Of a DNA stretch of 64,000 nucleotides, positions 3,397 to 61,986 are shown one piece after another. Positions within the stretch are counted from its first letter, which is position 1; each line of letters starts with the position of its first letter. Source of the stretch: a virus (lineage: Duplodnaviria > Heunggongvirae > Uroviricota > Caudoviricetes); the IMG/VR virus record IMGVR_UViG_3300020576_002722, positions 1-64,000 of that record; one strand, 5' to 3'. The notes below the pieces were generated by a model. The model was not told the origin of the DNA, ran no database searches, and saw only the letters and a program-made list of their open reading frames with translations. Made by a program: the position numbers and the translations under genes.

Positions 3397-3397
3397 T

Positions 3398-4159: not shown

Positions 4160-5823
4160 TGGCAACTGGAGGACCAGAGACACCGCTGGCTACTGGCCAG
4201 CCTGACATTGAGTCGGCCATCTCTGGTGCGGCGGCAACGTCAGTTGCGCCAACCCCAGAGGTTCCGGCGGCCGTAGATCCGTCCGCTGTTGATGCTGCCA
4301 ATGCGCAGGCGCAACAGGGTAGTGGCATCAGGCCGACACTCAAGGAGCCCACGATGCCGAACGCCCGTCTCGGCCCTCTGCGTCTCACCCAGGCGGACTT
4401 CTACGGGCAGCCGAACCCGGATACGATCCAGACCAGGACTGGCCCAACCACTGTGGCCAGCTTCGGTCAGGTGCCGCTCGCTATCTCCGGTATGCAGCTG
4501 GCCGAGATCCAGAAGCAGAGGGCCGAGACGCAGAAGGCCATCAAGGACTTCGACATCAACTCCGGAATCGGTAACGCCCCGAGCCCGTATCAGCGGAACT
4601 TCAAGAACCTGGCCATGACCGACATGGATACCTTCCTTCAGAAGGCGATCCAGCTGCACGGTGGCAACAAGGCAGAGGCCGTGAAGGAGCTGATGGACCC
4701 GACCAGCGAACTGAACGCTGCATGGCGGAAGAGGTCTACCCAATGGGAGGCCATCGGCCAGCAGGCGCAGTTCAAGTTCAAGCAGGCCAGCGACCTGTTG
4801 GATGCGGCCAAGACCGGAAAGATCCAGGTATCCCCGGATGCGATGAAGGTGGCCCAGGAGGCGCTCAATGGTATCGGTGAGTTCGGCGGCCCCAAAGGAG
4901 GCGACGTCATGGAGCTGACAGATACGCTGAAGCGCTTCGATCAGATCATGTCCCGCGAGGCGTACATCCAGGACTTCGCAATTCCCGGAATTGAAGCCCA
5001 CATGGCCGAGAAAGGAATCGCGCCCAAGACCACGCGCAACAAGTACGGCCAGCTGATCACTACCTACGGAAAGGAGAAAGACCTGTCTTTGTTCAGGGAG
5101 CAGGCAGCGAAAGACATGGCGTGGCGCGGCATCGGAGAGGGGAACACGATGGAGGAGCGCATCAAGAACAACAAGAAGGCTCTCGATGCTGCTCTTCCGA
5201 GCGACCAAGAGGTTCAGATCGCGATCACCAACCCTCACGCACCGTCCAGTTCCTCTTCGTCCGCAGACGTAAGGCCGAAGCCGGCCATCAGCACAGGCAT
5301 GTCTCCTGCGTCCAGGTACGACCTTGGCAATACAGGATCGGCTGGACAGGGTGTTCCGTCGACGATGGTTCCAACGCTATCCTTCTCAGAGAAGGTCGGC
5401 GACAAGATGGTCCCTATGGCCCCTCGTGAGTTTGACGGACCAAGTGGCCAGGTCAAGATACAGGCACCCGAGTTCAAGTACATCAGTGGCCACTGGCGGA
5501 TCGTTGGACGCGGTACCGGTACCACCAACGAGGCCAGGGACGTTGTTGGCGCAGCACCGACAAGGGGTTCCATCAGTAGCGCTAAGGGCCGGTCGAACGG
5601 CTCGACCGAGTACGAGGTTACCAAGCAGCGCGAGGGACGAATGGAGTTCCTCGACTACGAAAAGAACATACCCAGGGTAAAGAGTTACTTTGGCGAGGAT
5701 TTCGATATCTGGAATGTCGTCAAGGAGAAGGCGCAACAGAAGGGCCAGGCATGGGATCAGGCCGCATTCGATGCGCTTCCTAACGGTACCCGCCAGAAGG
5801 TAATGGACTACCTGTTCCAATGA
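4159..5823 (+). CDS. Hypothetical structural protein (554 aa)
   Basis: TGATG overlap with the upstream gene. Ser-rich linker (PSSSSSSADVRPKP). Sits in the structural block. Confidence 0.55.
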   Translation: MATGGPETPLATGQPDIESAISGAAATSVAPTPEVPAAVDPSAVDAANAQAQQGSGIRPTLKEPTMPNARLGPLRLTQADFYGQPNPDTIQTRTGPTTVASFGQVPLAISGMQLAEIQKQRAETQKAIKDFDINSGIGNAPSPYQRNFKNLAMTDMDTFLQKAIQLHGGNKAEAVKELMDPTSELNAAWRKRSTQWEAIGQQAQFKFKQASDLLDAAKTGKIQVSPDAMKVAQEALNGIGEFGGPKGGDVMELTDTLKRFDQIMSREAYIQDFAIPGIEAHMAEKGIAPKTTRNKYGQLITTYGKEKDLSLFREQAAKDMAWRGIGEGNTMEERIKNNKKALDAALPSDQEVQIAITNPHAPSSSSSSADVRPKPAISTGMSPASRYDLGNTGSAGQGVPSTMVPTLSFSEKVGDKMVPMAPREFDGPSGQVKIQAPEFKYISGHWRIVGRGTGTTNEARDVVGAAPTRGSISSAKGRSNGSTEYEVTKQREGRMEFLDYEKNIPRVKSYFGEDFDIWNVVKEKAQQKGQAWDQAAFDALPNGTRQKVMDYLFQ

Positions 5824-8800
5824 GCACACAGACACCTCCAACATTCGCCGACCTGGTAAAGGCGGCGACATCTTCCGATGCGCCACAGGTTCCGCCTGCC
5901 GGCAACCCTGCGTCGTCCGGATCTTTCGATGACCTGGTAAAGGCTGCCACCTCCCCAAAGGAGTCGACCCAGTCTCCCGAGAAAGCTCCGGTAGTCGGGG
6001 CGGAGGCTGGGCTTACTGGATCGGGTACGCGGTCGGATCTGCCAGCGCAGCGGCCGCCAGGTATGCCCGAACTTGTGCGGCCGGATATGCCGCAGGCAAG
6101 CACGCCCGAGCAAGACGCGGCGCTTGATAACATCGGAGGTCCGCCGCAGGAAGGCCAGCAGATCGGAGGTGTATCGCTTATCCAGCAGCCAAAACGCGGG
6201 ATGCGAATGACGCTCCCTACGTACACGATAGGCCAAGACCTGAAGGTGCGAGAAGTGCGTAAGCCATCAATGGCCGAGGACTCATTTGTCCGCACACAGC
6301 AGCGGGAGAGTGAGCGCGCAAAGGAGGCGATGGCCAAAGAACAGGCGGCGAGTGAATGGCGCAGGCAGCTTGATCCGACCAAGGAGGATGACCCGCAGGT
6401 GCGCGATCGCATCATGGGCGAGAAGCAGGCCCTTGATGAGCAGCTATCGCTTGCCAACCAGTATGATCCGGTCGCCCCTGATCAGCGGGGAGTCTTTGCC
6501 GGGTATTTTGAGCAGCCACAGCCGCACGATATGGGGGGCTATGTCTTTGACCAGCGGGACGACAAGATCCTGAAGGATTACGTGCAGCACTTGCAAATGC
6601 ACGGAGATGGCCAATACAAGACCTCGACGACACTCGGTGCATTGCAGGCCGGAAGAGAATCGGCCATCGACCGCTTTGCGGATTACTACAAAGACGCACT
6701 TCAGACCCAGACGGATGCGCTCAACGGCCGCGTGACGCGATTGTACCAGATGCGCGAGCGGGGTGCCGACCCACAAATGCTTCAGCAGGAGGCTGCCGAC
6801 ATTGAGGCCGGATACGAGTTCGTGCAGGCGCGCATGGACGACTGGGTGAAGAATGCGCCGAAGAGCGAAGTGCGCAAGGCTATTGAGCAGCGGCAGAAGG
6901 AGACGAATGAGGAGTATGACCGCATCAAGGATGACTGGTTCACGCCATTGTATGCCACAAAGAAGGGATTGCATGCGGCGCAGCTTGGATGGAATGAGAT
7001 GCTCTTCGGGTCGGCGGCAGGCATAGCTCGCGCCTTCGGAGACAAGGAGAACTACGATTGGTCGGATGACGTGTCCGACTACGTGGATCGCGCCACCAAG
7101 ATGAACGAATCGGCGCTGCCTACCGAATGGCAACAACCGTTTTCGCGAACGGTGAAGAGCCCGATCAGCGGTAAGGAGACGACCAAATACAACATCTTGC
7201 CGAGCCTGATTCGTGGCGGCGGCGGCATGGCCGCACTGATGGCTACGGGCAATCTTGCGGCGGCTGGTGGTCGTGCGCTCGGTATGGCACTGGGACGCGG
7301 AGTAGTCGGGGCTGCCGGAGGTGGCGCGAACGTAGCGCTATCCGAAGCCACCATGACGGGAGTGGGCCGAGCGTCCGCCCTGGCAGGAGAGCTTCCTGGA
7401 TATGGACAGAATGCAGGCTTCACCGCAGGCATGTTCTTTCCGGAATACGAGAGCTATGTGCGACAGGCAATGGATGGTGGCGTACCCGAGAAACTCGCCT
7501 CGGATGCTGGCCTGTTCTATGCCCTTGGATCCGCGTACATCGAACGCCTGAACCCACAGTTGTATGTAGGCGGAAAAAAGGCATTCCGCACCGCATTTAC
7601 GCAGGCTATCAGGGATGGGAAAGGTCCGAAGGCCGCGCTCGGTGATGGGCTGCGGCAAATCGGGATACAGGGCGGGAAGGAGGGAACTGAGGAGTTGATG
7701 CAAGGTGAGTTGATGCGCAAGACGAACCTTGCCGTGAATATGCTGACGGGGGCGGACCTCGAATCAGCGACCACACTTCGCGAGAAGATGAACGAGTTCG
7801 GTACCGGTGCCATCCTCGGCAGCATCGCCGCACTACCCAGCAATGGCGTTGCGCGACAGAAGCGCACGTTGGCGGAGAAGGAATCGCTCGCCTTTGCTGC
7901 GGAGTATCCCGAGTTCGCCGCTGAAGTCATCCGCAGGGACGTTCCTGAGGCGCAGCAGAAGGAGTTCCTCGACAAGCTGGAGAAGCTGAATAAGCTGTAC
8001 GTTGGCAATGGACTGACGGACCTTCCTGTCGATAATGCCGATCGCGTTGCTCAGGCGCTTGCCAAGAAGAAGGATCTACAGGAGCAGATCAAGAAGGCTC
8101 CTATCGCTGATGCGCTGCGTTCAGCCAAGGGTGACCCAAGGGAGGTTGAGGTCAACAAGTTGAATGTTGATGTGCTCCGTGAAATGAATGTTCCAGAGGA
8201 TGACATCGCACTGGTCTTGGCGAGCGAAGGTGTGATAAACCTTCCTGACGGAGCCAAGGTCACAAAGGGTGCTGACGGCAAGCTGACCCTTGACATAAAG
8301 GAGCCCAAGGAGGGAGAGCCGGCCGTCAGTAAGGAGGACGTTCTGTCGGGCCTGGTGAAGCAGGTTCATGGTATCGCTGGAGAGAGGACGACTGCTGCCG
8401 CCAAAGAAGCCAAGAAAGCTCCTGACAAAGATCCTGACGAAGAGGTAGAGATCGCACCGGTTGGTGACGCCACTGATCTGGATGCCGCGCTAGCATCGGT
8501 TACCCCAGGAATGAACAAGGCCCTTGACTCCGAAGTGGAGGCCGCAGCCAAGTCGCTATCCGGGGTTGGCGTCAAGGTTGTTGTGCATGATGACATCAAG
8601 TCATTCGCTTCTGCATTCGAGCAGGCCGGCGGATCGAAGTCGGTCGACCACCTGAACCACGAGGGATTCTACGATCGAGGTGGCCGTACTATCCACATCA
8701 ATCGCACCAATAACAGGTCTGGACTTGCCGCTCACGAGGGTGTTCACGCCCTGTTCATGGGCGCACTGTCGGATGTTGCTAACGGCAGGCAGATCATTGC

Positions 8801-11800
8801 GGAGGCCGCCAGGCAGGTAATGAACGAGTCGCCAGAAACGAGGTCATCTATTGCCAGGTTCCTTGAGTCGTACGGTGGGGCCATTCGTAAAGAGGATGGA
8901 TCGATCGATATCGAGGCTACCGTAGCGGACCCGAAACTGGCGCACGAGATATACGCAGAGTTCGTTTCCAGCGTGGCCAATGGTACCATCAAGCTGAACG
9001 GTGGACTTCGCACCTGGCTCAAGGACATGTACAACAAGATCATGGCCACGCTCGGTGTGTCCATGAAGTTCGACCCGAAGAGCGACGACGACTACATCAA
9101 GCTGGCTGCTGATCTTGCGAGCGCCATGAAGACCGGTCGCGTGATCAGGGCTGCGGAGAATGTTGCGGAGAATACAGCACCGGCACTCAGCGTACGTCGT
9201 GCATCAGACCTCGCCCAGCAACTAAACATCGCATCCACCGGGGCCGAGAAGGAGTTCTTCGGGAAGACGTGGCCTGGCTTGCTCAGGCAAGTAGGCAATG
9301 TATTCAAGCCTACCAAGGCTGGGTTTGAGGCTGCTGCCGATCTGGCCGTGAAGGACGTTGAAGAGTTCACCAGGGAGAATCCGAAGTACCAGGACTTCTA
9401 CAACAAGGATTGGGCACTTGCTGTGGCTATGCTCAATGATGCGTTCCCGATAACCAAGGAGCAGCCTGATCTGGTTCTTGCGTTCAGGGCTATGTCCGGA
9501 CTTACGAGTCCACAGACGTCACTTGGCCAGAATATGGTTGAAGCTGTATCTGCATTCGATCACTGGCTGAATAACGGAAGCTTCGATGCTGTAAAAGTAG
9601 TACCAACAGAGAAGGGTAATTTCTCACTCAAGAAATCACCGTTCAGTCTTGGTGGAAAGACAGCAACGAACAAGGCCAGGTCCCTCAAGGGTCTCGGCAA
9701 GCTGATAGATGAGAACGGAGTTGGAAAGGCTATTGAGATACTGAAGGAGCCTGTGTCCGCAAAGGAACTCAATGAGTTCAACGGGAGCCTTGGGTACAAG
9801 AGCGCTGTCGGAGGCATGAAGGCCGTGAAGAACGTGGTCTTGTCTGCTACTGGGCAGAGCGATAAGGTGCCAAGGATGTTCGTGTTCGGACCAAAGCTCG
9901 GTGCCTACACACTGAACTCGCTTGGTGATGGAAGGTTTACGACTATCGACATCTGGGAGAGCAGGTTTATTCGTTCATACTTCCCGAGGATGTTCGCGAG
10001 CGCCGGAGGAAAGATCCTTAACAACAGCACTGATAGCGATATCTTTACCGAGTTCATAGAACAATTCGCAAAGGCTTTCAGGGAAAGGAACGGATTTGAC
10101 CTTGACCCGTCGGCGTATCAAGCGATGCGCTGGTACACTATGATCGACGCTGCCCAGAAGGCAGGGTACACAAAAGCACTCACAGATGGAACAGTCTCAG
10201 ACTACACAGCAGAGGCCCTCGGAAGGGTTAAAGGACACGTTGTTCCTGGATATGCTGGCCGAGGTGGCTTCGACAGCTATCAAAGCAATGATCCAGAAGC
10301 AGAAAACTATGTACCATTCAGTATCCGCCGAGGATCTCCCGGTGGCGACACAGGAGGGAGGGCCGAGCCAGGAAAGAACCTGATACCTAAGGATATCAGG
10401 AAAAACCTCACCAGCGATGGCGACGGTAGCTACTTGTTCTACCATTACGGTGAAGACCTGAATGGCGGACGCATCAATCCAAAGTATGCTGGAACCGGGG
10501 CTGATAAAGGTACCAGGAACGAAGGAAGGAACAACAATGTATCCATGTACTACACGAAGCCTGACGAGCGGGAGTCGATGGTATCTGGAGATGTTCACGT
10601 TGTCAAGGTTCCCGAATACAAGGTGTATCCGTTCAATACCGATCCACTTGGCCTGTACGACAAGGCAGAGAGGATGTTCAGGAAGGACTACGGAGACTAC
10701 ATCGACTTCAGCCCCGTGAAGCAGGCTGACTACATGGGCCCGCTGGCTGCGAAGGCCGGATTCGACATGATGGTGGCCCAGTGGTCAAAGTTCCCGTTGC
10801 GCGGTGAGACGACCAAGGCGCTCAAGTGGGATCGCGAAGCTACCGACAAGGCGCGTGATCCAGCGTTGTCCACCGGATCACAGAAGTTCAACGACATCGC
10901 CCGCGCACTGATCGCTGCCGGCCACAACACCAAGGCCAAGGCCAAGGCGTATCTGAAATCGAAGGGGCAGGACGGGATCATTGATGCTGTCATCGAAGAG
11001 ATGGGGCGCATCCTTGAGGCGCAGCGCGAGATCCGCAAACGCAATGCGGCCGACAATAAACTGTCTGGAGAAACGACCACTCCGTTGCAGAAGCAGATCA
11101 TCGACGACTCTGGACCCGGACAGAACAGGTCTATGATCACTGTCGATGAGCGTATGCTGCTGAAGGACCGCATCAAGCGTGAGGCGCAGCTCGCTGCACA
11201 GTCAGCCCGCAAGGCAGCGACGGCCGCTCGCAATGCAGCCGACCTGGCGCAGACGCACACCGATCAAGGGTACAGGCAGGGCCTCGCCGAGGGTCAGCTT
11301 GCCGGCGAGATATCGGGCAAGGCTCAGGGTCGCAAGGAGGGTGCCCGTGAGGGAGCGGCAGAGGCCGCCCGTCAGCGTGACCTGTTCGTGAAGAGCGTAC
11401 GCGCCCATCTATCGGAGCTTGGCACCAAGTTTACGGAGGCCAAGACGAAGGCCATCATGACCAGGGCCGTGTCGGTGAACCCGACAAACAGGAACCAGGT
11501 CGAAAGATTCTTGGCCTATCTGGATGCGAAGATCGACGAGGCCAACGAGGCGGCACTCGGCAGCGCCGTGGACAGGATCATCGAGCTGACCAACCCGTCA
11601 CGGTACAAGCAGACCAACGAGTCTGGCATCCTGAAGGGGAAGATCGATGACCGCGTTCGCAAGCTGCTCGGGGTGATCCACTCGGCAGTCAAGGGAATGA
11701 CGCTCGAAGAGGTGTCCGACAAGATCGACGCCATCGACGCAGCGCTTTTCTCTCCAGACGCTGATGTGGCCCTTCTGGAGGACCAGCTGGAGGCGTATCG

Positions 11801-14081
11801 GATCGCCCACGGTGCCCTGTCCGGTGATCCGGAAGGCGTGGCCGGTGCGGAGGAGGCAGTGAAGCAGATCATCGCAGAGGGTCGCAGCAAGTTCCGCGAG
11901 GTGCTGGCCGCCAAGCACGAGCGTTACGTGGCCATGAGGCAGGATGCCATCTCGGCCATCACTGGCGACAAGGGTATCAAGTCAGGGTTCGAGGAAGTGA
12001 AGCTGGAGGAGAAGAAGCGCAACTTCCTAAATCACATGCTCGACGGGATCGGATCGTACCTCGACATGAACGAGGGACTCCGTACGCTGCTCGACAAGAT
12101 CGACAAGTCAGCTAGGGGCGGAGATCCTTGGAGCGGCAAGCTGGACCAGTTCTATCGCAAGGTGGCCAACAGCCGCAACACGATGAACACCAGGGCCATC
12201 TCCACGCTCGACGAGATGCGTGCGAAGCTGGAGGACATCTACGGCGGGAAGAAGGAGGTTGCTCGCGCCGTGAACGAGAACTCAAAAGTGAAGTCTCTCG
12301 GGAACTTCACCGACCTGAATGGCAACAACGTGGAGATGCTGCTGTCACAGAACAGGGCATACTACCTGTACAACCTGATGAAGAGCCCGGAGAACGAGGC
12401 TACATTCAGGGAGATGGGATTCACGGACGAGATGAAGAACGCCGTCGTTGACTTCATGACACCGGAAGTGAAAGAGTGGGCCGACTGGCAGACCGACGTG
12501 TTCTACAAGAACATGTACAATGATGTCAATGAGGTGTACAAGGGACTCAACTACATTGATCTACCGAAGAACAAGTACTTCACGCCTATCAGGCGCGTTG
12601 GCGTTGATGACTCTGCACCTGTTGAGGTGGGAAAGTTCCAGCGCAGCGCTGCCGGTGTAGTGAACGGATCACTGAAAGAGAGGACCGGATCCACGAAGCC
12701 GTTCGATCTGACGACGGATGGAGACAGCGTACTGTACCAGTACGTCGCTGCGATGAATCACTACATCGCATTCGCTGAGACTGTGCGCGATCTTAACGCA
12801 ACGTTCGGATCATCTGATGTGCGCAAGGCTATCTCGCAGAACGCCAACTCCAAGGATAACGATATAATCTCAGGGTTCATTGACGCGCTTGCGAATGACG
12901 GAAGGAATAGGGCGCTGTCGATAGGATTCTGGCAGAAGATACGCGGACTGCACGCAACAGCAAAGCTGTCACTGAACATGGTGGTCGCACTGAAGCAGCT
13001 GTCAGCGATGCCGGCGTACATGACCGATCTGTCGCCGAAGGACTTCGCTGTCGGCCTGATGGACTTCATGCGCCACCCGATCGAGGCGTCCAATATCCTG
13101 ATGGAGAGTTCGTACATCCAGGAGCGATACAAGAGCGGGTTCGATCGCGACATGGCCATAGCTATGGCTCGCGACTACCAGAAGGCGTTCTCTGGAAAGA
13201 GCACCCTGATGGACAAGCTGATGTTCAACGTGCGCTGGGGCGACAAGGCCGCAGTGTTCTCCGGCGGATGGGCGGTGTACAAGTACCATCACGATAAGGA
13301 GATCAAGGCTGGAAAGAGTGAGGCAGAGGCCAAGCGCATAGGTCTGTCCGAAATGGACGAGGCCACCAAGATGTCGCAGCAGTCTACCGGCACCGAGGAC
13401 TTGAGCGCATTTCAGAGGGCTGGAGAGGCATTCAAGTGGTTCACGATGTACAAGACGAACCCTATGGCTTTCTTCCGCCAAGAGCGCAAGGGCGTCAGGG
13501 ATATGGTTCGCGGTCTCAAGTCCGGTGACAAGACGCTGGCCGGAGATGGGTTCCGAAGGTTTATCGTGTACCACTTCGTACTCCCGGCCGTATTCCAGTT
13601 CGTGGTCAATGCACTTCCAGGCGTACTTACGTCTTCGGACGATGACGACGACAAGGATATGCTCAGGGCCCTAGCTCTTGGATCCATGAATGGATTGTTC
13701 ATAATGGGAGACTTCATGGAATGGATAGGCGATCGACTAACTGGTAAGCCGTGGGCTACCCACAAGGGGTCGCAGGCGGTGGAGGTTCCTATCTTCAAGT
13801 CCATGTCAGACATGATAGCGTCCATAGGCGATGTCATTGAGAGTTGGAAGAATGACGACGATGAATTGACCAAGAACATCATGGAGACGCTTCTTGAGGC
13901 TGGCGATGCGTCAGGCATACCAGCCAAGAGGGCGGCCAAGATGATGGAGAATGGAAGGTTCACGATGGAGTACTGGGACCAGTTGACGCCTGGCGAGCGT
14001 GCGGCCCTGATTTCGGGGTACGATCCACGGGAGATGGGCGACGGATACGGAGGACACCTGCAAAACCCTGAGAATCAGTAA
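5820..14081 (+). CDS. Giant 2753-aa virion protein with zincin-like HExxH motif (possible tape-measure, ejection or polyvalent protein)
   Basis: Single 8.3 kb ORF with ATGA start overlap. Has LAAHEGVHAL (HExxH), long coiled-coil A/Q/K-rich stretches and a DDDDDKD acidic patch. Directly upstream of the tail fibres. Confidence 0.7.
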   Translation: MSTQTPPTFADLVKAATSSDAPQVPPAGNPASSGSFDDLVKAATSPKESTQSPEKAPVVGAEAGLTGSGTRSDLPAQRPPGMPELVRPDMPQASTPEQDAALDNIGGPPQEGQQIGGVSLIQQPKRGMRMTLPTYTIGQDLKVREVRKPSMAEDSFVRTQQRESERAKEAMAKEQAASEWRRQLDPTKEDDPQVRDRIMGEKQALDEQLSLANQYDPVAPDQRGVFAGYFEQPQPHDMGGYVFDQRDDKILKDYVQHLQMHGDGQYKTSTTLGALQAGRESAIDRFADYYKDALQTQTDALNGRVTRLYQMRERGADPQMLQQEAADIEAGYEFVQARMDDWVKNAPKSEVRKAIEQRQKETNEEYDRIKDDWFTPLYATKKGLHAAQLGWNEMLFGSAAGIARAFGDKENYDWSDDVSDYVDRATKMNESALPTEWQQPFSRTVKSPISGKETTKYNILPSLIRGGGGMAALMATGNLAAAGGRALGMALGRGVVGAAGGGANVALSEATMTGVGRASALAGELPGYGQNAGFTAGMFFPEYESYVRQAMDGGVPEKLASDAGLFYALGSAYIERLNPQLYVGGKKAFRTAFTQAIRDGKGPKAALGDGLRQIGIQGGKEGTEELMQGELMRKTNLAVNMLTGADLESATTLREKMNEFGTGAILGSIAALPSNGVARQKRTLAEKESLAFAAEYPEFAAEVIRRDVPEAQQKEFLDKLEKLNKLYVGNGLTDLPVDNADRVAQALAKKKDLQEQIKKAPIADALRSAKGDPREVEVNKLNVDVLREMNVPEDDIALVLASEGVINLPDGAKVTKGADGKLTLDIKEPKEGEPAVSKEDVLSGLVKQVHGIAGERTTAAAKEAKKAPDKDPDEEVEIAPVGDATDLDAALASVTPGMNKALDSEVEAAAKSLSGVGVKVVVHDDIKSFASAFEQAGGSKSVDHLNHEGFYDRGGRTIHINRTNNRSGLAAHEGVHALFMGALSDVANGRQIIAEAARQVMNESPETRSSIARFLESYGGAIRKEDGSIDIEATVADPKLAHEIYAEFVSSVANGTIKLNGGLRTWLKDMYNKIMATLGVSMKFDPKSDDDYIKLAADLASAMKTGRVIRAAENVAENTAPALSVRRASDLAQQLNIASTGAEKEFFGKTWPGLLRQVGNVFKPTKAGFEAAADLAVKDVEEFTRENPKYQDFYNKDWALAVAMLNDAFPITKEQPDLVLAFRAMSGLTSPQTSLGQNMVEAVSAFDHWLNNGSFDAVKVVPTEKGNFSLKKSPFSLGGKTATNKARSLKGLGKLIDENGVGKAIEILKEPVSAKELNEFNGSLGYKSAVGGMKAVKNVVLSATGQSDKVPRMFVFGPKLGAYTLNSLGDGRFTTIDIWESRFIRSYFPRMFASAGGKILNNSTDSDIFTEFIEQFAKAFRERNGFDLDPSAYQAMRWYTMIDAAQKAGYTKALTDGTVSDYTAEALGRVKGHVVPGYAGRGGFDSYQSNDPEAENYVPFSIRRGSPGGDTGGRAEPGKNLIPKDIRKNLTSDGDGSYLFYHYGEDLNGGRINPKYAGTGADKGTRNEGRNNNVSMYYTKPDERESMVSGDVHVVKVPEYKVYPFNTDPLGLYDKAERMFRKDYGDYIDFSPVKQADYMGPLAAKAGFDMMVAQWSKFPLRGETTKALKWDREATDKARDPALSTGSQKFNDIARALIAAGHNTKAKAKAYLKSKGQDGIIDAVIEEMGRILEAQREIRKRNAADNKLSGETTTPLQKQIIDDSGPGQNRSMITVDERMLLKDRIKREAQLAAQSARKAATAARNAADLAQTHTDQGYRQGLAEGQLAGEISGKAQGRKEGAREGAAEAARQRDLFVKSVRAHLSELGTKFTEAKTKAIMTRAVSVNPTNRNQVERFLAYLDAKIDEANEAALGSAVDRIIELTNPSRYKQTNESGILKGKIDDRVRKLLGVIHSAVKGMTLEEVSDKIDAIDAALFSPDADVALLEDQLEAYRIAHGALSGDPEGVAGAEEAVKQIIAEGRSKFREVLAAKHERYVAMRQDAISAITGDKGIKSGFEEVKLEEKKRNFLNHMLDGIGSYLDMNEGLRTLLDKIDKSARGGDPWSGKLDQFYRKVANSRNTMNTRAISTLDEMRAKLEDIYGGKKEVARAVNENSKVKSLGNFTDLNGNNVEMLLSQNRAYYLYNLMKSPENEATFREMGFTDEMKNAVVDFMTPEVKEWADWQTDVFYKNMYNDVNEVYKGLNYIDLPKNKYFTPIRRVGVDDSAPVEVGKFQRSAAGVVNGSLKERTGSTKPFDLTTDGDSVLYQYVAAMNHYIAFAETVRDLNATFGSSDVRKAISQNANSKDNDIISGFIDALANDGRNRALSIGFWQKIRGLHATAKLSLNMVVALKQLSAMPAYMTDLSPKDFAVGLMDFMRHPIEASNILMESSYIQERYKSGFDRDMAIAMARDYQKAFSGKSTLMDKLMFNVRWGDKAAVFSGGWAVYKYHHDKEIKAGKSEAEAKRIGLSEMDEATKMSQQSTGTEDLSAFQRAGEAFKWFTMYKTNPMAFFRQERKGVRDMVRGLKSGDKTLAGDGFRRFIVYHFVLPAVFQFVVNALPGVLTSSDDDDDKDMLRALALGSMNGLFIMGDFMEWIGDRLTGKPWATHKGSQAVEVPIFKSMSDMIASIGDVIESWKNDDDELTKNIMETLLEAGDASGIPAKRAAKMMENGRFTMEYWDQLTPGERAALISGYDPREMGDGYGGHLQNPENQ

Positions 14082-14093: not shown

Positions 14094-17000
14094 ATGTTCG
14101 CCCTCAACGTATCCCTCTGCGGATCCTGTAACCAGCTATCGTTCGAGGATTCGACCGGGCTCTTCTCCATTGACAACTCTGGAGGCTACAACTCCGGGGA
14201 CGCCGACACCCCGCAGTCGCCCAGCGACTTCGACACGTATGTGCTGACCATCTGGAAGCCTGGTGCCGACCTGGATGGGCCACCGACATACACTCTGGAC
14301 CTACTGGCCAACGTGCCGAACCCGGACTCTGACTACCACTTCACCTGGACCATTACGGCGTCTGCCCTGGGGATCGATCCGATCGTGTCCGGCATCTGGA
14401 ACGCCCACGTTGAGGCGGCCTACGATCAGGTGACCTATACGGCCGACTACGCCGGCTTGATCGACAGCGATATCCTGGACAAGCTGGACGTGGAGATCAT
14501 GCGTGCCGGTCCCGTTCGTGGCCACCTGACCAAGTGCCAGATCAAGCTCATGAACCTCAAGTCCCTCCTGTGCGCAGCGCACTCCGCTGCTGGCTGCAAC
14601 AAAGCCGACATCGCTCAGGAGATCATCAATTACCTGTATCAAAACTTCCGTCGCTGCTGCGGCTGGCCGAGGGCCGGTAACAACTGTGCATCTGCGCCGT
14701 GTGGATGCGGTAGTCGCGCGCTCCCCGCTGGCCGTCCCCGTCGCAACGGATCGGTGTGGTATTCTGGTATCGGAGCACCGTCTGCTTCCCTCGGCTCTAC
14801 CAGCGACTGGTACGTCGACACCGAGCACAACGCCGACACGCCCGTTGGGTTCGACACCTTCTACCAGAAGGTGGCCGGCGTGTGGACGCTCAAGTTCGTC
14901 ATCGAAGACGGTGCCCCAGGTAATGATGGACCTGCCGGGGCTGATGGCGCTCCTGGGTTCACTACTCTCCTGGCCAGCTCACTAAATCCGGCTATCGGGT
15001 TTACGCAGCCAGCAGCTGATGGATTCAGCTATACACTCGCCAACGTAGCTGACAATAGCTGGATCGCCATCGGTGCCCCGCTATTCATTGGTAACGGCGG
15101 CCAGTACATCGTGGTCGGGAAGGCCGGTGCCAACCAGATCTCGATCGTCAACCTCCAGAACACCGCCATCATCGGATCGTATCCAGGAAACGTTCCTCCC
15201 GGAAGTACGGTCCCTATCGGAGCTATCGTGGCCGCAAGTGGATTCCAGGGCCCAGCTGGTCCAGGATCTTCCTTCAGCGGAGCCTACTCCGATCTGACCG
15301 GAATCCCGTCCAGCTTCAACCCGTCCGCTCACGCTCCAACGCACACCGCAGGAGGCAGCGATCAGATCACCGTTGTCGAGTCGATGATGTCCCTGTCGGA
15401 CAACACGCTCAACAACGCAAGCACGACCAAGCATGGCTTCCTTCCGAAGCTGTCCGGCAATGCAGCGCAGGCGCTTCTCGGTAACGGAACCTGGGGCGCG
15501 AGCGCAGGGTATACGGACGAGCAGGCGCAGGACGCTGTCGGAAACAACATGTTGGACACCAGCACGGTGGATGCTGTGTATACCGACGGTGCTCCATCGA
15601 ACCAGTTCAGCTGGAACGTGAAGCCTGCCGGGATCGCGCTCGACACCCTGGGCAGTCCGACCGACAACACGAACCTGAACGCGACCACCACGTACCACGG
15701 CCTCCTGCCCAAGCTGAATGGATCCACCGGTCAGTATCTGCGCGGCGACGGTACATGGGGTACCCCGGCCGGCAGCGGGTCGGTGACCAACTACCCGGAC
15801 CTGGCTGACGTGGAGGCGATCGCCACTGCGTACAATGAGACGATCCAGGTGAACGGAGATGGCACCGGACTGGTGAACCGCTTGGTCAGCAACCCGACGA
15901 TCGATCTCGGTGCGATGTTCAACATCCGCCCGAAGACGTACGCCAACATGAACAACATCGATCAGTGTGGCCCGGACCTGGGCATGGTGATCGCCGACTT
16001 CATCGACCTGTTCCCGAACTACTACGACGTGCTCAGTGTTGAGCTTGGGTGGTCCGATGCGGACATCCTCAGGCTGACCTACTTCACGGCCGCCTTCAAT
16101 GAGATCGGATTCCTCGCATGGAACGGCGGATCCGGCTACGCGTACACGCGCTACAAGATCGCCCTCCCCGCTGGCAAGCTCTGGTACAACTCCGAGCTTC
16201 GCATGGGGCAGAACATCGTAGAGGGACAGGGTTCCTTCTACTACGGCGGATACGGCAACACGGAGGTGGCCTGCACGCACACCGACTGGAAGAGCCTGTA
16301 CGGATCACAGAACGACGGCACATACCTCGGATTCTGCCCGTGGACCTACGCCGGTGAAGAGGGCGCATCGATCGATCCGGTGGCCACACTCGGTGGATCC
16401 AGCTGGTGCCACAGCACCATGATCAAGGATCTCTGCATGTCTGGCACATGCACCGACTTCAACGACTACCGCTATCGCGAGGCCGGGTTCAACTATTGGG
16501 GTCCTGGTGAGAACTCCGGTGCGGAGAACTGCCTGTTCGTACACTTCAATGACTCGGGCATCGTAGTCAGGGCCCAGTGCGCCTATGCGTACGCCAACCA
16601 CTGCTCCTTCTTCTCGAACGGGGTCAGCGGCTACGGCATCGGTGGTATCTCTCGCGCTACGTTGAGTCTTAGCGCTTCGGGTGACCTGAACCCGTTCATG
16701 TACTACACCTATCGTTGCGGAGAGACGAACACGGCACCCAACGCAAGGGCTGCCGTCACTGCGACGACAGCGAACTTCATTCAGCCGGCCGTATCCGGAA
16801 CGGTGGCAGTTGCCGTAGCGGATACTGGAACCCTGCGTATCGGGCAGCCGTTCTATGTGACCGGTGGAGGATACTATGAGATCACCAACATCGTTGGACT
16901 CACGCTGACGCTGGAGAACACTGGTGACTACCAGAACGCAGCTCCTGGTGCATCGATCCTGTCCGGAGCAGTGTGCAACTTCCCATACTGGCCCAACACG

Positions 17001-17573
17001 TTGTCCGGAAACCCTGGTGGGAACATCACGGTCCCATACCTGAAGCTGGAGTCGTTCGCCTGCGGCACCCTGATCGGAACGTACAGCCCATGCCCGAATG
17101 GCGCAGAGGGCAAGGGTCAGATGCTGGCCCGCCTGACCGGTCGATTCCACTTCGCTGTACTTGGCGGAACAGCCACGTCGGAGGGCGGAAAGTGCGACAG
17201 CCTGATCCGCGTGGAGAACGATGGCGATACCGGCGGAACGATCCCACTGTCGAACTCGTCCGTGTACGTGGCCAACCTCGGCTCCATCAGCTGGGCCCAC
17301 TGGCTGCACGACGTGAAGAACGACACCAAGTACGTGGCCAACGTGGTCGACGACGACACCCACGGAAGCGGGATCATGTGGACCTATGGGTATCCGTCAG
17401 CTCCTGCTGACGCGTTCGACCCACTGAAGGTTGGCGTTACGCTATCGACCATCACCGCCACCTACAAGGGCATCCAGCCGTTCATCAACGACGCCGATCC
17501 TATCGTGTGGAACCAGTCTACTGGTCCATCTGCCGGAGATGGATGGGACGCTGTAACCGGAATCCTGAACTGA
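14094..17573 (+). CDS. Tail fibre protein with collagen-like Gly-X-Y tract (1159 aa)
   Basis: GAPGNDGPAGADGAPGF collagen-like run. Repeated TTKHGFLPKL...LLGNGTWGA and TTYHGLLPKL...LRGDGTWGTPAG motifs typical of phage fibres. Cys-rich C-terminal region. Confidence 0.7.
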   Translation: MFALNVSLCGSCNQLSFEDSTGLFSIDNSGGYNSGDADTPQSPSDFDTYVLTIWKPGADLDGPPTYTLDLLANVPNPDSDYHFTWTITASALGIDPIVSGIWNAHVEAAYDQVTYTADYAGLIDSDILDKLDVEIMRAGPVRGHLTKCQIKLMNLKSLLCAAHSAAGCNKADIAQEIINYLYQNFRRCCGWPRAGNNCASAPCGCGSRALPAGRPRRNGSVWYSGIGAPSASLGSTSDWYVDTEHNADTPVGFDTFYQKVAGVWTLKFVIEDGAPGNDGPAGADGAPGFTTLLASSLNPAIGFTQPAADGFSYTLANVADNSWIAIGAPLFIGNGGQYIVVGKAGANQISIVNLQNTAIIGSYPGNVPPGSTVPIGAIVAASGFQGPAGPGSSFSGAYSDLTGIPSSFNPSAHAPTHTAGGSDQITVVESMMSLSDNTLNNASTTKHGFLPKLSGNAAQALLGNGTWGASAGYTDEQAQDAVGNNMLDTSTVDAVYTDGAPSNQFSWNVKPAGIALDTLGSPTDNTNLNATTTYHGLLPKLNGSTGQYLRGDGTWGTPAGSGSVTNYPDLADVEAIATAYNETIQVNGDGTGLVNRLVSNPTIDLGAMFNIRPKTYANMNNIDQCGPDLGMVIADFIDLFPNYYDVLSVELGWSDADILRLTYFTAAFNEIGFLAWNGGSGYAYTRYKIALPAGKLWYNSELRMGQNIVEGQGSFYYGGYGNTEVACTHTDWKSLYGSQNDGTYLGFCPWTYAGEEGASIDPVATLGGSSWCHSTMIKDLCMSGTCTDFNDYRYREAGFNYWGPGENSGAENCLFVHFNDSGIVVRAQCAYAYANHCSFFSNGVSGYGIGGISRATLSLSASGDLNPFMYYTYRCGETNTAPNARAAVTATTANFIQPAVSGTVAVAVADTGTLRIGQPFYVTGGGYYEITNIVGLTLTLENTGDYQNAAPGASILSGAVCNFPYWPNTLSGNPGGNITVPYLKLESFACGTLIGTYSPCPNGAEGKGQMLARLTGRFHFAVLGGTATSEGGKCDSLIRVENDGDTGGTIPLSNSSVYVANLGSISWAHWLHDVKNDTKYVANVVDDDTHGSGIMWTYGYPSAPADAFDPLKVGVTLSTITATYKGIQPFINDADPIVWNQSTGPSAGDGWDAVTGILN

Positions 17574-17575: not shown

Positions 17576-17794
17576 ATGAGCATCAACAACAAGATCCCAG
17601 GAAAGCAAGACTTCATCCGTGCCGGCATCAGCTGGGACCGGGTGGAGCTTGCACGTAAGGCGGTAGCCGAGTCCGAGGCGAAGCTCGCCGAAGTGAGGGC
17701 CGACGACAAGCTGTCCAAGGAAGAGAAGACGGCCAAGATCAAGGCCATCAAAGACGCCCACACCGAGTACATCCTTTCGATCCGGAACAAGTGA
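17576..17794 (+). CDS. Small hypothetical protein (72 aa, coiled-coil)
   Basis: ATG 2 nt after the fibre-gene stop. Charged helical K/E-rich sequence. The 17507 start in the track would overlap. Confidence 0.4.
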   Translation: MSINNKIPGKQDFIRAGISWDRVELARKAVAESEAKLAEVRADDKLSKEEKTAKIKAIKDAHTEYILSIRNK

Positions 17795-19095
17795 GCATCG
17801 TTATCCCCGACAACGCGATCCTTTCCCGCAGGATCAACTACTCCTGCTGTGTAGCCGACCTGGCGCACCAGTTCATCGTGGCCGACCGCTACGGTGAGGC
17901 GTGCGCAGAGGAGCTTCTTTACAAGATGGAGTGGATGCAGAACGCGCTCGGGGTAATGAACCGCACGCCAACGTCCACGGAGGAAGGGTGCGTGACGCAC
18001 GCATACGCGTGCAAGATCATGCAGTGGGCCGACCCAATGTGCGGACACTGCGAATGCTGCCCTCCGTTCTACCAGCAGGACCCGTGCGCCACACTGCCGT
18101 TCATGCAGGTAGCCTCGGCCGAGGACGCCGGACAGCAGAACGCGCTGGTCGGCAACACCGGTATGCAGTACCTGATCGTGAGCAACAGCCCTCCCGCCGG
18201 AAACGAATGGGCCTCTCATGTTGGCGACATCGCAACGACCAACGGTACCACCTGGTCCTATGTGACGCCTCCGGCCGGATCATTGATCCTGTCGATCAAC
18301 GGTTCAAGCTACTGGATCACCTACTCCGGCGGTGCAGGTACCCAGTACCCTGTCGTTGATGGACAGCTCGCCGGTGCATCCATCTTCCTGTCGTCCGTAT
18401 TCCCGCAAGTGAACGCTATCGCTGCCAGGAACGTAGTCGTACAGGTCAGCAATAACAGCACTGACTGGGTCACCGTATTCGTAGGATCCGAGTCTGCCCT
18501 ATCTACGATCCTGATCGTGGACGCCATCGTACTGGATGCCACGTACATCAGGTCGTACTACTACGTCAACGAGTGCCAGTATGGCCCATCGAACGGAACC
18601 GTTCAGCCTGACGCGTGCGCCGTTGCCCGCACCATCGCCTACGGGGCCGACGCGTCCGAACAGGGAACACTGCCGAACACGCTGGGCATCGAATACCTGA
18701 TCATCTCGGATGAGACAGGTGCCGGAAACGCCTGGGCTTCACAGGTGGGTGACATCGCTACCGGTGACGGCGTCGGCGGGTGGACATACACTACGCCGGC
18801 CGATCTGTCCACCAGCCGTACTACCACGGACTTCTTCGGAGGATCGAACGTCATCTGGATCACATCTGGTGGCGGAACCATCACCCCGTACTTCCCGCCA
18901 TTGTTGGCCAATGTTCTCTGGAACACGGCCACGATCACGACGGACTGGACCCCGAGCGGACACGACATCATCACTCGTCCGGTAACGATCGAGCAGAGCA
19001 ATGACGGCGGAACAACGTGGACGACCGCGTTGGACCAGAGTCGGACCTTGGGGACTCGCTCGACATCACGATCATCCCAGGCGTGGATCCGCTGA
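17791..19095 (+). CDS. Tail fibre-like protein with internal duplication (434 aa)
   Basis: GTG start overlapping the upstream stop. Two ~40-aa repeats: GMQYLIVSNSPPAGNEWASHVGDIATTNGTTWSYVTPPAG and GIEYLIISDETGAGNAWASQVGDIATGDGVGGWTYTTPAD. Cys-rich N-terminus. Confidence 0.6.
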   Translation: MSIVIPDNAILSRRINYSCCVADLAHQFIVADRYGEACAEELLYKMEWMQNALGVMNRTPTSTEEGCVTHAYACKIMQWADPMCGHCECCPPFYQQDPCATLPFMQVASAEDAGQQNALVGNTGMQYLIVSNSPPAGNEWASHVGDIATTNGTTWSYVTPPAGSLILSINGSSYWITYSGGAGTQYPVVDGQLAGASIFLSSVFPQVNAIAARNVVVQVSNNSTDWVTVFVGSESALSTILIVDAIVLDATYIRSYYYVNECQYGPSNGTVQPDACAVARTIAYGADASEQGTLPNTLGIEYLIISDETGAGNAWASQVGDIATGDGVGGWTYTTPADLSTSRTTTDFFGGSNVIWITSGGGTITPYFPPLLANVLWNTATITTDWTPSGHDIITRPVTIEQSNDGGTTWTTALDQSRTLGTRSTSRSSQAWIR

Positions 19096-20075
19096 TGCGT
19101 GTATTGTACGGTGGCCTCTGCCCAGGACAGTCCACTGTGATGGTGTCCGTGGTACCGGCAAGGTCGCTCAGGATATCGTCAGGTGCCCAGATGTCGTACG
19201 GTTCCCCTACCGTCGGGTTGATAGTCCCGGTGCGTCAGCAGACATTCACGTTCGGAACGTACATGAAGGCAGCTGGCGCTCTTGATGTGAACGCGTTCTA
19301 CTTCGACTACACCGTGAGCCGAAGCAATGGATACGTATCCGTTCGTGCCGCCCCCGGCCCCCCGGCATCCCCTCCGGCGCTTCCCGAAAACTATCAGCCG
19401 ATCATCATTTCACTGATCAAGGATAGTACCGATCCTCGCTGGCTTGGTAACCACAACATCATACTGAGCTGTTCTTGCCGTAGCAATGTGCAGCCACTTG
19501 ACTACGACGTATACAGCAGGGCGTACGAGATACCTGGATTGCGTGCGCTTTTGGAGGATGGAAACTGGCACAGCATTGATATCGTCAGGTCCACGGTCAC
19601 TGTGAACAGCTTCGACTTCGCCGACTGGAAGGTTTACGTTGACGGGTCTCCAGTCGTGTTGAACGAGATCTACACGGTAGGGTCTGTCGACCTTCTGGTA
19701 GGATATACTAATGTTGCCGGAAACTTCGCCCCTAAACTCACGGCAGATGGACTCACCGGTGGACGCGATCTCCTATGGAAGAACACCTATTGGTGTACCG
19801 GTGCCTTGACACAGTCGCAGATCACCAACGTGGCCAGGACCGGATCTTGGAGCGGAGCGATAGTTGGCCTTCAGGCCATGTTCGGGTACGATCTTCCGGC
19901 AACATGCAGCTGGCCGCCCACGCTGCCGTACATGGGAGAGCGGTACAACCCGGCCATACCGAACGATCCGGCCGGAGGCGGCCTGATTCCAGGAGGAATG
20001 ACCCTGGTTCGATCTGGCCCGACCGGTAACGGGGAGTTCGTGAACGATGTTCCGTCAACCCTCCTGTTCCCGTAG
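19095..20075 (+). CDS. Hypothetical tail-associated protein (326 aa)
   Basis: TGATG overlap with the upstream gene. Start refined from 19017 to the in-frame ATG at 19095. Confidence 0.5.
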   Translation: MRVLYGGLCPGQSTVMVSVVPARSLRISSGAQMSYGSPTVGLIVPVRQQTFTFGTYMKAAGALDVNAFYFDYTVSRSNGYVSVRAAPGPPASPPALPENYQPIIISLIKDSTDPRWLGNHNIILSCSCRSNVQPLDYDVYSRAYEIPGLRALLEDGNWHSIDIVRSTVTVNSFDFADWKVYVDGSPVVLNEIYTVGSVDLLVGYTNVAGNFAPKLTADGLTGGRDLLWKNTYWCTGALTQSQITNVARTGSWSGAIVGLQAMFGYDLPATCSWPPTLPYMGERYNPAIPNDPAGGGLIPGGMTLVRSGPTGNGEFVNDVPSTLLFP

Positions 20076-27474: not shown

Positions 27475-27692
27475 GAGAGCTGACCATTGGAGAGAAGCGG
27501 GTTCGCATTGAGTTCAACCCGAGCAACCAGGATAATGTCTTCCGGGTGAAGACCAAGATCGCAGAGCTGATCAATGAAGCAGAGGCCATCAAGGCTACGG
27601 TAACTGATCCTGAGGCAAAGCGTCTCGCAGCTCTCGCCTCCACTGATCTTGAGAACGCGGCCATGTGGCTGGTGAAAGCACTTACGGCATGA
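27471..27692 (+). CDS. Small hypothetical protein (73 aa)
   Basis: ATGA overlap at both ends. Start refined from 27381. Confidence 0.45.
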   Translation: MRELTIGEKRVRIEFNPSNQDNVFRVKTKIAELINEAEAIKATVTDPEAKRLAALASTDLENAAMWLVKALTA

Positions 27693-28117
27693 GCAACGGA
27701 AGGATCATCGCCATCGATTTCGATGGCACATGCGTAACGCATGAGTACCCGAAGGTCGGAAAGGACATCGGCGCTGTGCCCGTCCTGAAGGCGCTGGTAG
27801 AGGCTGGACATGCCCTGATCCTGTACACGATGCGATCAGGTCAGACGCTCAATGATGCAGCCGACTGGTTCCGAAGGAACGGGATAGGGCTGACGGCCGT
27901 AAACGTGAACCCGTTCCAGTCTACCTGGTCCAGCTCGCCCAAGGTGTACGCTCAGTTGTACATCGATGACGCAGGGTTCGGGGCACCACTGGTGCTTCCG
28001 GATGGAGAACAGCGTCCGCACATTGATTGGGCGTTGGCTGAGAACTGGCTACGCCTGGCCGGGTACCTTCCCCAAGTCAAGGAAGCCAAGCAAGAAGAAC
28101 AAACCACCGAAGTATGA
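27689..28117 (+). CDS. HAD-superfamily phosphatase-like protein (142 aa)
   Basis: IIAIDFDGTCV carries the DxDGT HAD motif I, as in polynucleotide kinase 3'-phosphatase and deoxynucleotidase domains. Start refined to the ATGA overlap. Confidence 0.5.
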   Translation: MSNGRIIAIDFDGTCVTHEYPKVGKDIGAVPVLKALVEAGHALILYTMRSGQTLNDAADWFRRNGIGLTAVNVNPFQSTWSSSPKVYAQLYIDDAGFGAPLVLPDGEQRPHIDWALAENWLRLAGYLPQVKEAKQEEQTTEV

Positions 28118-60749: not shown

Positions 60750-61204
60750 AGTTTCCAGAGATTCTTCTCAAAGGTATCAGGAATCCTGAAGTCGATGATC
60801 TCTCGGACCACGTTCCAGTTGAGGCCACCCAGGTGGCATCCGATCAATGGGAAGTTGATCGCAAGTGTTCCGTCGATCGCAGCCAAGACGGCTACCTGTT
60901 GCATACACGCATCCATCGCATCGTAACTCGCATACTTCCTCCCGTCCTTTCCGTAGAACTCCTGCGTGAAGCAGTTCATGACGATCGTGTTGTCGCTGCC
61001 GAACAGATGTACCTCTTGAACGTCACCAAGCAAGTGGCCTCCAGGTCTCTTGGACGCAACATGCTTCAAGTACTCAGTGAACACTTTGGGCCACTTGTTC
61101 CGGATGGCGAGCGCCACACCAGATCCCATCACGCCTTGGGTATTAACCCCGTGCAGGATGATGCCTTTCGCGGTGAGAAGGTCACCCTTGATCTCGTTGA
61201 TCAT
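60746..61204 (-). CDS. Macro domain protein (ADP-ribose-binding or ADP-ribosylhydrolase-like, 152 aa)
   Basis: GDLLTAKGIILHGVNTQGVMGSGVALAI matches the macro-domain G-rich phosphate-binding motif. Confidence 0.7.
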   Translation of the reverse strand: MINEIKGDLLTAKGIILHGVNTQGVMGSGVALAIRNKWPKVFTEYLKHVASKRPGGHLLGDVQEVHLFGSDNTIVMNCFTQEFYGKDGRKYASYDAMDACMQQVAVLAAIDGTLAINFPLIGCHLGGLNWNVVREIIDFRIPDTFEKNLWKL

Positions 61205-61986
61205 TTGAAGTAGGAGTCGATGCGTTCGCGGATCTCCCTCATGCTTCCAGCCCTAGTGATCACCCCGTCAGCGAACACCACATCGAAGGCGCAGTCGTGA
61301 ACATCTTCCCATGATGCCTGCTCCTGCAATAGGAACCCGTGATCGTGGTCGTGGTGTACAGCCAGGAGCCCCTTGGCGCTGTTCTTTCCACCATTGTCGG
61401 TCTTCGGCTTCTTGAAGATCTCGCGAGGCTTGTAGTTCACCACTCCGTAGGTGGCCTTGATCGCCATGCCGTAGGTGTCACGGGTCACATACTGGTACGT
61501 GTAGCTGCCGATGCCGAACACGACATTGGTGCTGGCGAACCCTTTCGCGATCAGCCTGTCGACGATCTTCTGGGCACGCTCCGGGGTGATGCTGTCTCCG
61601 TAGATGGCACCGATATGCGGGTCGAGAACCTTGAATCCCTTCTCGTTCACGGTACCTCCGAAGGTGTTCCATAGGCACTCAATGAGCCCTTTGCCCTCTG
61701 GGGTCATCTTGGTAAAGGTTCTAGTACCAGGAAGATGGTATCCGCACAGGATGTCCACCGGATCCCCGCTGTCTGGCCTGATCACCACCTTGCCTTCACG
61801 ATTCATGATCTCTGATTTCAGGGCCGGCAGATACTCGGTGACCACCTTCCAGAAGTCCCATGTGTCGCTGACGATGCTGATGATCCCGGACGGATGTACC
61901 TCAGTGATCAGGCGCTTGAAGTGGAGAAATTCCCCTCTTGTAAGTCTCTCTTCTTCAGAGAGTTTCCTTGTCCGTGTTTTCTTCAT
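61201..61986 (-). CDS. nadV: Nicotinamide phosphoribosyltransferase, C-terminal half (separate ORF, 261 aa)
   Basis: IVSDTWDFW, VIRPDSGDP, IYGDSIT and VVFGIGSYTYQYVTRDTYGMAIKATYGVVN align with the C-terminal catalytic half of NAMPT. Confidence 0.8.
   Translation of the reverse strand: MKKTRTRKLSEEERLTRGEFLHFKRLITEVHPSGIISIVSDTWDFWKVVTEYLPALKSEIMNREGKVVIRPDSGDPVDILCGYHLPGTRTFTKMTPEGKGLIECLWNTFGGTVNEKGFKVLDPHIGAIYGDSITPERAQKIVDRLIAKGFASTNVVFGIGSYTYQYVTRDTYGMAIKATYGVVNYKPREIFKKPKTDNGGKNSAKGLLAVHHDHDHGFLLQEQASWEDVHDCAFDVVFADGVITRAGSMREIRERIDSYFK

Follow-up and report, generated by a model that had tools for sequence, protein, structure and literature searches.

A single gene in the 64,000-nucleotide stretch of tailed-phage DNA analysed here (the window: positions 1 to 64,000 of IMG/VR record IMGVR_UViG_3300020576_002722, Caudoviricetes) encodes a protein of 2753 amino acids that is, quite probably, a giant polyvalent-type cargo protein of a podovirus-like phage. 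It is a new, divergent member of the known class of polyvalent virion-cargo proteins and overturns nothing known. A first-pass annotation of the window had suggested an ejected polyvalent or internal-virion protein carrying a metallopeptidase, and this suggestion is supported by the modular, swapping architecture of the protein and its relatives, by the structural (Foldseek) matches of its C-terminal module and by homologues in podoviruses that are annotated as structural. Packaging in the virion, ejection, catalytic activity and self-processing are properties that we infer from these relatives and from the literature. The features that bear on the assignment are given below; here and throughout, the "153 representatives" are the best 153 matches of a profile of the HExxH domain, and all module counts refer to them.

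5820..14081, plus strand: the whole gene, 2753 codons plus stop, for the giant polyvalent-type protein
8511..9149, plus strand: predicted zincin-like (gluzincin-type) metallopeptidase domain, residues 898-1110
8733..8747, plus strand: HEGVH, comprising H972, E973 and H976, the predicted metal-binding and catalytic motif, 100% conserved in the 153 representatives and located in model helix 72-87
8946..8948, plus strand: E1043, predicted third metal ligand on the second conserved helix, 99% conserved, model helix 141-156
11457..14078, plus strand: C-terminal all-alpha module with a proposed role in packaging or delivery, residues 1880-2753 (874 residues), 26% identical to proteins P0002 and P0003 over about 830 residues
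13551..13730, plus strand: putative membrane-inserting hairpin of two hydrophobic helices joined by the acidic loop SSDDDDDKD, residues 2578-2637, placed from hydropathy peaks

The open reading frame (ORF) listing and the translation gave a 2753-residue product with an ATG start and no internal stop (5820..14081, plus strand), confirming the single gene of 8.3 kb that had been described. The protein contains only one HExxH motif, at residues 972-976 (HEGVH; the string LAAHEGVHALFMGAL is encoded at nucleotides 8724-8768), and the chance expectation from its own composition, with 31 histidines, is 0.023. The single motif of the first-pass annotation is thus present, once, at residue 972, and because it is invariant in 153/153 representatives of the family it is not a chance match. 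E1043 is invariant in our alignments A1-A3. Besides the fully conserved H972, E973 and H976 and the nearly invariant E1043, conservation among the representatives is high at Y1018 (93%), E1047 (90%), H959 (90%), N961 (89%) and H923 (88%). Five giants (the window protein and its relatives P0002-P0005) each carry a single HExxH in the shared context G-x-[FY]-x(5-7)-I-h-[IV]-N-x(8-9)-HExxH. A search of 1.84 billion cluster representatives with a profile built from the five domains matched 1115 of them at E<=1e-3, of which 550 also reached E<=1e-10; almost all are phage giants of 2000-4300 residues, aligned across the full length of about 200 positions. Word-index protein searches with the HExxH region alone and with alignment A3 returned no relatives; since the exhaustive profile search found 1115, we read these nulls as a limit of the index and not as absence. 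A scan of 23 domain sequences against Pfam gave scattered weak matches only (DUF6782, DUF5700, Peptidase_M78, SprT-like, Tox-MPTase2/4). The domain marks a peptidase clade of more than 1100 clusters that is invisible to Pfam and PHROGs, and the window adds a high-GC member to it.

We modelled the HExxH domain with AlphaFold2 from a 23-sequence alignment and obtained a predicted local distance difference test score (pLDDT) of 85 and a predicted template modelling score (pTM) of 0.75. The order of elements is helix, strand, helix, strand, strand, HExxH helix, further helices and the helix bearing E1043 and E1047, with helices at model residues 3-19, 72-87 (residues 75-79 being H972-H976) and 141-156 and strands at 22-26, 52-55 and 60-64. 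The model shows a canonical zincin core around the motif, the point on which the first-pass annotation had made its proposal hang, and a zincin fold for residues 898-1110 is a well-supported prediction. In a profile search of the PDB, IrrE (M78) was matched at E 0.011 over exactly the strand and the HExxH helix. The closest solved folds are those of lethal factor and the PPEPs, respectively a secreted toxin and adhesin-cleaving endopeptidases; the scores are modest and the list is coherent. These MEROPS M34 gluzincins (anthrax lethal factor and PPEP-1/2/3) are the best solved-structure matches to the window domain. The residue pattern of M34 is HExxH ... Tyr ... Glu, and the conserved residues of the window domain follow that same order. 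Since E973 is invariant, the downstream glutamate is 99% conserved and the tyrosine 93%, we predict an active hydrolase. The giant protein supplies concrete residues (H972, E973, H976 and E1043), together with a bounded C-terminal module, as targets for functional tests.

The relatives of the protein are recognised module by module. With the whole protein, searches of PHROGs, NCBIfam and the PDB sequences gave nothing meaningful, megablast against 50,697 phage records gave no nucleotide match, and a scan of IMG/VR with peptide patterns from the giant protein gave nothing. A large protein collection yielded four relatives besides an identical protein, and each of them shares a different segment: P0002 (2803 residues) and P0003 (2969 residues) share residues 1880-2711, P0004 (4322 residues, with SNF2/ResIII helicase matches) shares residues 216-831, and P0005 (4301 residues) shares residues 1127-1463. 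In a translated search, residues 1962-2606 matched a 2482-residue "structural protein" of Tenacibaculum phage Gundel_1, and by tblastn residues 1522-1681 matched "structural proteins" of 68 Flavobacterium elemo podophages. Both are true homologues. Gundel1_74 (2482 residues) shares the C-terminal module (E 2e-99) and has HEFGH in a matching context; gp21 of elemoA (3694 residues) shares the HExxH domain (E 7e-67) and has the counterpart of a conserved middle domain (middle domain 2, below) at its residues 2072-2249 (E 1e-67). The common parts are 22-30% identical, each of the two proteins has a different subset of the modules, and both lie in a gene order similar to that of the window and are annotated as structural proteins of podoviruses. 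Their hosts are low-GC Flavobacteriia, whereas the window has 57% GC.

A common layout emerges from the family, in that 50/153 representatives have a variable N-terminal part of 600-1500 residues, then the HExxH domain, then a middle that varies and lastly a C-terminal module of about 900 residues. Pfam scans of 17 full-length relatives gave single matches only (LPD23, a "large polyvalent protein associated domain", GNAT, methyltransferase, L5 gp82), which we take as a sign that the middle parts are exchangeable. A case in point is the contig of P0004 (L008; genes at 2882-7702, 8259-10001 and 10001-22969), where the 4322-residue giant occupies the same slot as the window gene. This contig carries homologues of four genes that lie upstream in the window, of 250, 1503, 253 and 489 residues, and of three that lie downstream. 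What the two giants have in common is limited to the N-terminal module and the HExxH domain, and P0004 has an SNF2/ResIII helicase in place of the middle and C-terminal parts of the window protein. The pair amounts to a natural experiment in effector-module swapping within a fixed genomic slot.

The C-terminal module was also modelled with AlphaFold2 (28 homologues; pLDDT 73.7, pTM 0.71) and is nearly all helix. It lies at the extreme C-terminus in 50/153 representatives, no Pfam family was found for its roughly 870 residues, and comparison with PDB folds gave no counterpart beyond generic helical bundles. Against the predicted viral structures of BFVD, however, Foldseek returned 93 matches at E<=1e-3, with a query-normalised template modelling score of up to 0.83. 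The targets include proteins named ART-PolyVal-like, Large polyvalent protein associated domain, PolyVal ADP-ribosyltransferase and Phage MuF C-terminal domain, as well as Nuclease, Type I restriction enzyme, N-acetyltransferase and Structural protein of Gundel_1; the suffixes _2 and _3 of the targets were taken to denote later pieces of proteins split for prediction. From these matches we read the module as a common tail end of polyvalent proteins. Within it, the hydrophobic helices of the putative hairpin span residues 2578-2599 and 2615-2637 (model helices 692-717 and 729-746), and the hairpin is kept in the family consensus YHxxxPxxFQ...GLPG...DEDxxD...GNxNxLF. Among the other clusters of C-terminal modules, only the P0004 type shares a stretch, of about 190 columns (probability 96.7%).

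Tentatively, the C-terminal module could be an undescribed, widespread delivery module that takes polyvalent cargo into podovirus capsids and out through the envelope. If so, it would be the functional equivalent of the structurally orphan C2 domain of the N4 virion RNA polymerase (vRNAP), and the part of the HExxH peptidase would be to cut interchangeable effector domains loose from the module. Peptidase and delivery module would then together form a general, engineerable protein-injection cassette, which hundreds of lineages of uncultured phages would carry and which Pfam does not cover.

Polyvalent proteins were defined by Iyer et al. in 2017, with a zincin-like MPTase, divided into 12 clades, as the commonest hub domain and self-processing as a proposed function (PMC5512222). 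Like the members of that class, the window protein is giant (>2000 residues), multi-domain, furnished with exchangeable partner domains and encoded in a late-gene block. Its AlphaFold2 model has the core described for the MPTase (N-terminal helix, three strands, HExxH helix, Glu helix), with E1043, the predicted ligand, as the conserved glutamate on the second helix, and its C-terminal module matches proteins that UniProt names ART-PolyVal, LPD or MuF-C. On the other hand, none of the Pfam models from that study (MPTase-PolyVal, ART-PolyVal, LPD1-39) matches the window protein, LPD23 being found in 1/17 relatives. The window MPTase also differs in having conserved histidines in strands 1 and 3 (H923 and H959), and it lacks the Asp three residues after HExxH that is known from one phage clade.

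Two virion proteins, N4 gp50 and crAss001 gp47, belong to the polyvalent class. Residues 2130-2448 of N4 vRNAP have been unified with lethal factor (PMC5512222), and the C-terminal domain of gp50 consists of an HExxH domain, C1, followed by an alpha-helical C2 of about 110 kDa without structural homologues (PMC13434306). The window protein, as modelled, has an HExxH domain and, further on, a very large C-terminal region that is predicted to be mostly helical and had no solved homologue, a layout that may be comparable. The strand and HExxH context also correspond (KTIYLVSPSMETLIHELVHA vs RTIHINRTNNRSGLAAHEGVHA; the N4 motif is at residue 2228), and gp50 is ejected from a podovirus. The relationship between the two HExxH domains is nonetheless marginal (hhalign probability 46%); about 770 residues of other domains separate the HExxH domain from the C-terminal module in the window protein, unlike in gp50, and gp50 has a polymerase domain, none having been found in the window protein. 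The gp47 protein of crAss001, virion cargo of 262 kDa (PMC10172136), also has one HExxH only, in matching context (hhalign probability 13%); it lies near the C-terminus, at residue 2157 of 2341, unlike in the window protein. Profiles of the C-terminal module and the HExxH domain, run against crAss001 gp43-50, picked up only the HExxH motif of gp47, weakly. A zincin-like protease domain has also been described in phi14:2 gp65 and its orthologues, which are virion proteins (bioRxiv 10.1101/2020.03.07.982082). We note that crAss001 gp47 (residue 2157), N4 gp50 (residue 2228) and Gundel1_74 (residue 1337) have exactly one HExxH each, preceded in all three by a shared context, …I/V-x-L/I-x(6-9)-T-x-x-HExxH.

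The gene order gives a possible further parallel. Giants of the crAss-like type are encoded after a tail-tip (muzzle) gene of about 1400-1600 codons and one or more smaller cargo genes, gp44 of crAss001 being the muzzle and gp45 and gp46 cargo (PMC10172136). In the window, the order of a protein of about 1500 residues, small proteins, a protein of about 500 residues and the giant resembles crAss001 gp44, gp45, gp46 and gp47. P0003 is preceded on its contig by genes with detectable similarity to the muzzle gp44 (Pfam crAss_MUZ_C; N-terminus of gp44, E 1.7e-7), in elemoA the 3694-residue gp21 follows a 1470-residue "virion structural protein" and three small genes, and in Gundel_1 the giant is two genes upstream of the portal. 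The first-pass annotation had placed the gene between virion proteins and tail fibres. The fibre side of that placement is supported by the downstream ORF 17791..19095, which has DUF2793 above the Pfam cut-off and a homologue on a related contig with Laminin_G_3; the upstream genes gave no family matches, and it is because their order is shared with cultured podoviruses and a crAss-like contig that we call the neighbours virion genes.

On this basis a course of events can be proposed. The giant protein would be a late product that enters the capsid, most probably by way of its conserved C-terminal module. It would then be extruded through the short tail, ahead of the DNA or with it, as a partly unfolded chain of beads on a string. 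The metallopeptidase may cut this chain, or partner cargo proteins, into functional pieces, either inside the head or after ejection, and the hydrophobic segments may aid entry into the envelope or its crossing. The wider interest is that N4-like, crAss-like and many uncultured podoviruses take over the host before their DNA is expressed by means of giant virion-packaged proteins.

Several observations weigh against the assignment as virion cargo. The whole giant protein has no Pfam match at E<=1, MPTase-PolyVal included, and no capsid, portal or terminase was recognised in PHROG and Pfam scans of 20 further ORFs of the window. By hhalign, the window neighbours of 1503 and 554 residues are not significantly similar to crAss001 gp44, gp45 or gp46, so that the likeness to the crAss001 order is synteny by size only. 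The profile of the C-terminal module did not detect N4 gp50, and the "structural protein" labels of Gundel1_74 and elemoA gp21 are record annotations. As to processing, N4 vRNAP, the most thoroughly studied protein of this kind, was reported to be packaged unprocessed (PMC5512222) and no protease activity was reported for the HExxH domain of gp50 (PMC13434306); self-processing is for these reasons a hypothesis even for the archetypes of the class.

The last point bears on what the peptidase is for. It might act as an effector on host targets, such as peptidoglycan cross-links or envelope or defence proteins, and not in self-processing, an alternative that we consider rather unlikely. Both roles have been raised in the literature (PMC5512222; bioRxiv 10.1101/2020.03.07.982082), the nearest solved folds, lethal factor and the PPEPs, are those of a secreted toxin and of adhesin-cleaving endopeptidases, and individual family members match Tox-MPTase2/4 weakly. 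However, Pfam scans of the giant protein and 17 relatives found no accompanying peptidoglycan-binding or lytic domain, and the HExxH domain is the one constant element among shuffled giants. Its constancy alongside changing partners favours, though not decisively, a role tied to the polyprotein over a host-specific target.

That the HExxH domain is catalytically silent or no peptidase at all, serving as a structural or regulatory metal site or being of the HExxH oxygenase type, seems improbable. The general base E973 is invariant (153/153), the downstream glutamate is conserved at 99% and a tyrosine, placed as is typical for lethal factor-type gluzincins, at 93%, and the fold matches are peptidases.

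Much less probable still is an N4- or crAss-type virion RNA polymerase hidden in the unassigned regions. The overall logic would be that of N4 gp50 and of the crAss gp47-gp50 block (PMC13434306, PMC10172136), and about 950 residues, made up of the N-terminal module plus middle domain 1, are without assignment. Yet these regions are rare and exchangeable, occurring in 6-7 of 153 representatives, and do not form a conserved core. No polymerase was found in the PDB sequence search (E<=1) or with Pfam, PHROG or NCBIfam, and no DFDxD or DxDGD occurs in any large plus-strand ORF of the window, about 14 kb of the 78 kb contig lying outside it.

Finally, we reject the reading as a tape measure protein whose length sets that of a very long tail: a very long protein with long helices in a late or structural gene block would fit it, and enzyme-fused giants exist (P23-45 has a 5002-residue tape measure protein with an RNA polymerase; bioRxiv 10.1101/2022.12.01.518664), but it is contradicted by Gundel_1, a podovirus with a tail of 22.7 +/- 3.2 nm (PMC8776804) that nevertheless carries a 2482-residue homologue with a matching C-terminal module. 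The elemo phages, with a homologue of 3694 residues, are likewise named as podoviruses (vB_FspP), and syntenic relatives with homologous neighbours have giants of 2753 vs 4322 residues, 1569 residues apart. Moreover, much of the protein consists of globular domains, and Pfam, PHROGs and NCBIfam gave no tape measure, tail-tube, sheath or chaperone matches in the gene or its neighbours.

Returning to the polyvalent-type protein, its remaining parts are as follows.

5820..6209, plus strand: N-terminus rich in Pro, Ala, Ser and Gly, probably disordered, residues 1-130, from translation and composition
6465..8312, plus strand: N-terminal module, residues 216-831, matched by BLASTP to P0004 (32% identity, E 4e-56)
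9198..10208, plus strand: middle domain 1, residues 1127-1463, 32% identical to residues 2617-2961 of P0005 (E 3.5e-45)
10401..10889, plus strand: middle domain 2, conserved, residues 1528-1690, common to gp21 of the Flavobacterium podophage elemoA
10917..11456, plus strand: helical linker rich in Ala, Gly and charged residues with repeats of the GxxxG/AxxxG type, residues 1700-1879, from composition

None of the relatives found covers residues 1-130. This segment contains a duplicated motif, F(A/D)DLVKAATS, as FADLVKAATS at residues 9-18 (5844-5873) and FDDLVKAATS at residues 36-45 (5925-5954), which could be a docking or recognition peptide. The N-terminal module is common to few giants, P0004 (4322 residues) among them, and jackhmmer found it in 6/153 representatives; it has Gly/Ala-rich hydrophobic stretches at about residues 455-560 and 655-680, and the N-terminal region showed no significant similarity to the N-terminal regions of Bacteroidota-type giants. 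Middle domain 1 occurs in 7/153 representatives, its counterpart in P0005 having a sub-threshold match to DUF7178. Middle domain 2 is found in 19/153, with invariant Y, E, D, Q, W and R in alignment A5, and its profile had no sequence match in Pfam or the PDB. In the linker, residues 1785-1876 (about 11172-11447) form a Gly/Ala-x3 repeat helix, probably a glycine-zipper-like helical linker, for which Yae1_N and FliH were matched below threshold only. The long coiled coils of the first-pass annotation are supported in part, by helices of 35-45 residues in the AlphaFold2 model of residues 1880-2753; at about 1700-1880 there are just these Yae1/FliH-type matches.

The ATG of the giant gene shares the sequence ATGA with the stop of the upstream gene, and 13 nucleotides separate its own stop from the start of the next gene, so that it sits in a tightly packed co-directional block. 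Neither the giant gene nor the next one is preceded by a Shine-Dalgarno-like sequence (window 5800-5822 and 14079-14096), which would fit a host making little use of such sequences (e.g. Bacteroidota) despite the 57% GC. An identical protein, P0001, is present on 3-4 metagenome contigs. Over the 8262 nucleotides of the gene there are no differences from L002, a metagenome contig 99.75% identical to the window; 57 mismatches lie elsewhere in 1-24077, about 20 of which would be expected inside the gene if they were evenly spread. Most of the variation falls in the fibre-like genes that lie downstream.

ORF 14094..17573, which follows the giant gene immediately, encodes 1159 residues in the window and proteins of 190 and 967 residues in L002. 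The difference lies at 14655-14675, where the window has TGGCCGAGGGCC and L002 has TAACCTATGGCT, the latter creating a stop and then an ATG; it is a gene fusion/fission polymorphism between near-identical phages. At about 19000 a single indel distinguishes the two, the window having overlapping ORFs 17791..19095 (434 residues) and 19017..20075 (352 residues) and L002 a single DUF2793 gene of 762 residues. The gene probably encodes a fibre or receptor-binding protein, and possible causes of the difference are a frameshift mutation, a mistake in the assembly and programmed frameshifting.

Elsewhere, the window has phage-like genes for a DnaB-type helicase, a DUF6371/zinc-ribbon protein, an RNA ligase and a metallophosphoesterase, together with pieces of NAPRTase (nicotinate/nicotinamide phosphoribosyltransferase). 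These pieces lie on the minus strand, 61201..61986 comprising NAMPT_N and the start of NAPRTase and 62622..63581 the NAPRTase core, with ORF 61983..62534 between them, and the two may represent one gene of NAD salvage that has been split or interrupted. On the plus strand, 27665..28117 is an auxiliary gene resembling phosphoheptose isomerase (phrog_1238, E 3e-28); gp60 of crAss001 is also a phosphoheptose isomerase.

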